Positions 18,604 to 18,611 of a DNA stretch of 64,000 bases are shown here, piece by piece (positions within the stretch are counted from its first letter, which is position 1; each line of letters starts with the position of its first letter). Position numbers and translations under genes: made by a program. The DNA comes from Escherichia coli (GTDB lineage: Bacteria > Pseudomonadota > Gammaproteobacteria > Enterobacterales > Enterobacteriaceae): assembly GCF_030384885.1 (NCBI RefSeq), contig NZ_CP128613.1. One strand, given 5' to 3'. Below the pieces are notes generated by a model that worked only from the letters and a program-made list of their open reading frames with translations, was not told the DNA's origin and ran no database searches.

Positions 18604-18611
18604 TTACGGGC

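Follow-up and report, generated by a model that had tools for sequence, protein, structure and literature searches.

The 8 bp that lie between the convergent core genes yhhJ and nikR in the stretch of Escherichia DNA analysed here (64 kb, hereafter the window) very probably represent the null allele of a long-standing accessory-gene insertion site. In other Escherichia the same gap holds alternative contents, namely the Rhs toxin element rhsB with yhhH and yhhI and a preceding BIME, the hicAB pair, or a 5.8-kb sugar island, which may or may not be accompanied by hicAB. The observation holds, is unremarkable and is of a known kind: where rhsB lies, and that some E. coli strains have it and others do not, has been published (Jackson 2009, PMC2935791). 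The additions made here are modest: a census of the alleles, evidence that the 8-bp allele has persisted in lineages as divergent as species, and the clade-I-type origin of the window. E. coli genomes are well known to have sites between core genes at which alternative cassettes occur, and the census is a tidy description of one such core-genome hotspot. Beyond the bookkeeping that the source genome carries neither rhsB at this site nor any other cassette known there, its importance is small.

The yhhJ/nikR junction in the window and in K-12

The features of the locus, in window coordinates, are as follows.

13680-14747, plus strand: yhiI, HlyD-family adaptor, first gene of the yhiI-rbbA-yhhJ cluster (RefSeq annotation of the collinear 2013C-4282 region; HlyD/RND adaptor profiles)
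14744-17479, plus strand: rbbA, ribosome-associated ATPase/ABC transporter fusion (NF033858 RbbA equivalog, 1596 bits, cut-off 1050; annotation)
17479-18603, plus strand: yhhJ, ABC-2 permease, left core flank, stop TAA at 18601-18603 (ABC-2 permease profile; RefSeq annotation)
18604-18611, no strand: spacer TTACGGGC, very probably the empty (null) allele of the yhhJ/nikR accessory-gene insertion site (window sequence)
18612-19013, minus strand: nikR, nickel-responsive repressor, right core flank, stop TAA (NikR equivalogs NF002815 and TIGR02793)
19018-23933, minus strand: nikABCDE, nickel ABC importer operon, upstream of nikR (annotation of the collinear region; NikE profile)

As read from the sequence, the stops of yhhJ (18603) and nikR (18612) are 8 bp apart in convergent genes, and the string across the junction is, on the plus strand, ...ATGGCG TAA (18601-18603) TTACGGGC TTA (18612-18614) ATCTTCC... 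This is a direct fact of sequence and not a statistical pattern. In profile searches the nikR ORF matched the NikR equivalogs NF002815 (E=3.7e-70) and TIGR02793 (224 bits), and the NikR protein (WP_001190062.1) is identical in K-12, B2 and the window lineage. The junction of NZ_CP027579.1, where yhhJ is annotated as an ABC transporter permease, is 100% identical to that of the window, and the RefSeq annotation of the 100%-identical junction places, in window coordinates, yhhJ at 17479-18603 and nikR at 18612-19013. Sequence, profiles and annotation thus confirm exactly the 8-bp distance between convergent stops given in the earlier note.

The same note had placed rhsB and two small genes between nikR and yhhJ in K-12, and had proposed that the junction be aligned to MG1655 and other E. 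coli. On comparison this placement was right: in MG1655 (NC_000913.3) nikR ends at 3618989 and is followed by rhsB, yhhH, the yrhC pseudogene, yhhI and yhhJ (stop ending at 3625679), so that 6,689 bp separate the two stops, as opposed to 8 bp in the window. Strain AML001_ev02 (4.63 Mb) displayed the same gene order as MG1655. The nikR/yhhJ position is Rhs locus 9 of Jackson et al. (2009, Table 3; PMC2935791), represented in K-12 by the rhsB region b3481-b3485 of MG1655, and these authors concluded that the rhs at position 9 originated solely within the K12/HS/ATCC8739 lineage. The window resembles this locus in its chromosomal position, bounded by nikR and yhhJ, and in its orthologous and collinear core flanks, which align up to the stop codons, but differs from it in having no rhsB, yhhH, yrhC or yhhI and no BIME after yhhJ. 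Neither the large Rhs core ORF (about 1,400 aa, with YD repeats) adjoining nikR, as judged from the 8-bp gap and from BLASTN of the whole window, nor the immunity/small ORF yhhH and the H-repeat/ISEc1 transposase gene yhhI, both present in MG1655, was found in the window. Similarly, no Rhs, hicAB or PTS-island DNA turned up in the 64 kb when the Rhs elements of K-12 and AR_0372, the hicAB cassette and the island of O157 were used as BLASTN queries, BIME repeats being the sole matches. The Rhs site is therefore unoccupied, as had been proposed from the letters of this DNA.

The BIME/REP-type repeats of the window lie at 4980-5066 and 54970-55059, each consisting of two inverted REPs around an IHF-like motif, and are 76-85% similar to the element that directly follows yhhJ in K-12, AR_0372 and E. 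whittamii. A copy of this type is absent from the yhhJ/nikR junction of the window itself. The BIME after yhhJ in the Rhs and PTS-only alleles is probably a RIP-type element, to judge by eye from its two inverted REPs around an IHF-like AATTCAATAAATTG.

Alleles at the site and carriers of the empty one

Among the complete RefSeq E. coli genomes sampled, the empty allele has 8 bp between the stops and the hicAB-only allele, a toxin-antitoxin pair, has 821 bp. The O157:H7 allele consists of hicAB plus a 5.8-kb sugar island (PTS IIA/IIB/IIC, FGGY kinase, HPr, class II aldolase and GntR regulator), and the sugar island without hicAB, with a BIME after yhhJ, was found in E. whittamii and in one E. 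coli-like contig. Rhs alleles range from 6.7 kb in K-12 to 11.5 kb in AR_0372, where orphan tips and IS1 are included. The counts below refer to 5,425 complete E. coli genomes, a biased set, and reflect BLAST coverage at the junction rather than curated annotation or phylogeny.

Empty, uninterrupted junction: 165 of 5,425 (3%), the rarest of four classes (junction-specific BLAST)
Insert up to about 1 kb, counting the empties: 1,654 of 5,425 (junction-specific BLAST)
Small insert alone (1,654 − 165): about 1,489 of 5,425 (27%), with hicAB in 10 of 10 sampled rows
Rhs-type nikR-side junction: about 2,126 of 5,425 (39%) (junction-specific BLAST)
PTS-sugar/GntR-island-type nikR-side junction, with or without hicAB: about 1,635 of 5,425 (30%) (junction-specific BLAST)

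Together the four classes account for 5,415 of the 5,425 genomes, which is essentially everything, and most genomes lack rhsB (about 3,299 of 5,425, or about 61%). The site is a multi-allele accessory-gene hotspot between core genes, in which the alleles begin and end at the two stop codons or a few bases from them, the flanks being the core genes themselves. The nikR stop varies with the allele: it is TGA in the K-12 Rhs and hicAB-only alleles, and TAA in the empty alleles, the Escherichia PTS-island alleles and the AR_0372 Rhs allele.

The empty allele, understood as an uninterrupted alignment over both gene ends with an 8-bp spacer of the form TTACGNNS, is present in the window and in two other groups. 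The first comprises strains 536, A0 34/86, DS566 and Z1323HEC0477, which we take to be B2 on the basis of 536 and A0 34/86, and in which the spacer is TTACGGGG instead of the TTACGGGC of the window, both of 8 bp. The B2 junction (536, A0 34/86, DS566) is like that of the window in its 8-bp architecture and in its TAA nikR stop, but its yhhJ stop is TGA instead of TAA and its flanks are only about 95-97% identical. The second is SCPM-O-B-8794 (L010), which is labelled E. coli, represents a deep Escherichia lineage and bears the 8-bp spacer TTACGAAG; its divergence is at the species level, with 93.3-93.9% identity to every other Escherichia locus examined. Carriers of the empty allele are, hence, a clade-I-like group that includes the window, B2 strains and a deep Escherichia lineage. 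These three groups are 93-96% identical to each other, and the divergence of their flanks is typical of their lineages. Since the empty allele is common to unrelated lineages, by descent or by recombination, it is not diagnostic of lineage. The proposal that the empty junction would be a clean marker of strain lineage was accordingly overstated, given at least four common alleles, the absence of rhsB from the majority of genomes and the presence of the empty allele in unrelated lineages. It is informative but polyphyletic or plesiomorphic, and can be used as one typing character among many and not alone.

Divergence of the flanks is a far better lineage signal than the junction allele. Over 50 kb the window was 99.54% identical to 2013C-4282, with no gaps and 228 differences, and its identity to E. 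coli sensu stricto (the K-12, B2 and O157 loci) was 94-96.5%. Strain 2013C-4282 is among the complete cryptic clade I (C-I) genomes (PMC10100065). Closeness to an accepted C-I genome together with about 96% identity to E. coli sensu stricto, which is the combination expected of C-I, was thus found in this 64-kb region. We infer that the window derives from a cryptic-clade-I-type Escherichia, a close relative of the STEC strain 2013C-4282. It is not that strain itself, an identification that we rejected: although a 1-kb junction query was 100% identical to 2013C-4282, a 2-kb query over rbbA–yhhJ was 98.5% identical, and the 228 SNPs in 50 kb are clustered. The differences are packed at 21-6116 and 12137-17709, with only 6 in 17710-50000, and the second dense tract stops within yhhJ, at a distance of 894 bp from the junction. 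The two tracts look like homologous-recombination imports in a very close relative, and E200086 was not closer to the window within them. After 2013C-4282, the nearest strains at the junction were E200086 and relatives that include Z0117EC0005 and AST85, which are 97.3-97.5% identical and in which the site is also empty.

Rhs elements occur as repeats in E. coli genomes, at which short-read assemblies can break or collapse, and the junction could in principle be an assembly or annotation artefact in which such an element had been collapsed or dropped. Against this, the junction is identical in the closed genome of 2013C-4282 and of the same type in 164 other complete genomes from many laboratories, and 50 kb of the window align collinearly to 2013C-4282 with no gap. 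We regard the artefact as effectively refuted.

Age of the empty state and probable exchange of alleles

To compare the site outside E. coli, GTDB species representatives were scanned with YhhJ and then by tblastn with NikR, and the junctions were read; E. albertii, E. fergusonii, E. marmotae and E. ruysiae were not returned by the YhhJ scan, so that the closest outgroups are missing from the comparison. In 14 Citrobacter loci and in Salmonella enterica subsp. diarizonae, yhhJ and nikR were convergent and adjacent with no island, the spacers being of 15-103 bp (471 bp in one Citrobacter locus), many of them with REP-like palindromes as read by eye from the junction sequences. The 15th Citrobacter locus harbored the PTS island. 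This is C. amalonaticus S646 (L062, 11126-17052), with a PTS/kinase/aldolase/GntR island in the yhhJ/nikR gap that was 78% identical, as compared with 81-83% for its flanks; two other C. amalonaticus genomes had only REP spacers at this position. In E. whittamii (L012, 11126-17034) the gap held an island of the O157:H7 type, 94.7% identical to that of O157, a value like that of the flanks. Presence and absence of the PTS island is, therefore, a polymorphism common to more than one genus.

Within E. coli, the AR_0372 Rhs allele reads TAA-TTAC-[Rhs element]-GGC-TTA, whereas the window reads TAA-TTAC-G-GGC-TTA. This is as expected if a BIME plus Rhs element had entered the middle of the 8-bp spacer, the match consisting of 7 bases only. 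On the strength of the adjacency of the genes in the outgroups, the three 8-bp spacers and these TTAC/GGC flanks, we think it likelier that the empty arrangement came first and the insertions later. The two genes, convergent and separated by a short spacer, would then be in the ancestral arrangement, simply retained by the lineage of the window, and we consider it somewhat probable that the site was never occupied in that lineage. The direction of the change is not proven, as the PTS island is old enough that the ancestor of Escherichia could have carried it, the 8-bp allele then being a clean secondary loss.

Such a secondary loss supposes that an ancestor had a PTS, hicAB or Rhs island and that the null state was regained, either through homologous replacement from a donor with the null allele or through a precise deletion which recombination then spread. 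The antiquity of the PTS island at the locus, found in E. whittamii and at 78% identity in C. amalonaticus S646, agrees with it, and recombination has been active beside the junction, where the dense SNP tract that separates the window from 2013C-4282 ends 894 bp away and only 6 SNPs follow in 32 kb. The closest yhhJ alleles, moreover, are not limited to genomes with an empty site, SMS-3-5 (97.0%) being among the closest matches. However, three lineages with flanks 4-7% apart have the same TTACGNNS 8-bp architecture, which is easier to reconcile with an old allele than with precise deletions on several occasions; in addition, most outgroup species have no island and the 8-bp spacer bears no island scar. 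On balance we believe that a regained null allele is rather unlikely, and prefer an old empty allele at a long-standing insertion site; on both readings the site is unoccupied.

As to how the alleles spread, no integrase gene was annotated at any allele examined, and comparison of the junction strings disclosed neither flanking direct repeats nor target-site duplications at the Rhs, hicAB or PTS inserts. Strains would exchange the alleles through homologous recombination within the conserved flanking genes and not through site-specific integration. Touchon and colleagues are said to have described, in 2009, accessory cassettes at fixed gaps between E. coli core genes, as integration or recombination hotspots. 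The yhhJ/nikR site is like the core-genome hotspots of E. coli in that several unrelated cassettes occupy one gap with a patchy distribution across phylogroups and species. It is unlike them in having no integrase or attachment-site repeat, and the window represents the null state and not a cassette.

A consensus scan for a Rho-independent terminator (a G+C-rich hairpin plus a T run) found none near 18604-18611, and RNA folds of 101 nt on both strands at the junction were no more stable than shuffled sequences (z = +0.94 and +0.41). With 8 bp and no hairpin there is no intrinsic terminator, so that in the null allele the converging transcripts would be predicted to end inside the 3' coding region of the opposite gene or by the action of Rho. 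A further possibility is that this terminator-less gap may couple nikR and the rbbA-yhhJ transporter by convergent, overlapping transcripts. Another reading is a trans-species presence/absence polymorphism at this gap, in which the empty, PTS and hicAB alleles would each be older than the divergence of E. coli, clade I, E. whittamii and the deep Escherichia lineage (for PTS, even that of C. amalonaticus) and would have coexisted ever since through balancing selection or constant recombinational exchange; we consider this scheme, with or without such coupling, improbable.

Neighbouring polymorphisms

Other parts of the window also vary in content among the genomes compared. A small hypothetical ORF at 44415-44723, between tusA and zntA, corresponds to WP_000385061.1 in 2013C-4282. 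The tusA–zntA gap of the B2 loci has no annotated gene, and there the alignment of the flanks is interrupted (92% identity over 181 bp).

Six kb from the junction there is a biosynthetic cluster of about 15 kb adjacent to acpT (24633-39646) and aryl-polyene-like by its look. It encodes beta-ketoacyl-ACP synthases, FabG2, ApeI/ApeP dehydratases, an MMPL transporter, a LolA-like protein, a glycosyltransferase, an AMP-binding enzyme, two ACPs and a methyltransferase. The cluster was also found in 2013C-4282, E200086 and O157:H7, whereas the B2 loci lack it and have acpT directly next to yhhT. It is thus a second presence/absence polymorphism near the junction.

On the other side, the segment 8062-13447, which comprises yhiM and two paralogous DUF4049 genes of the YhiJ/YhiL family (9823-13314), did not align to the B2 loci L004 and L005, in which the yhiM gene is present and the DUF4049 genes are absent. 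The B2 loci therefore differ from the window, which has both the yhiJ/yhiL DUF4049 genes and the 15-kb cluster next to acpT. In K-12, one of the two DUF4049 paralogues is a frameshifted pseudogene.
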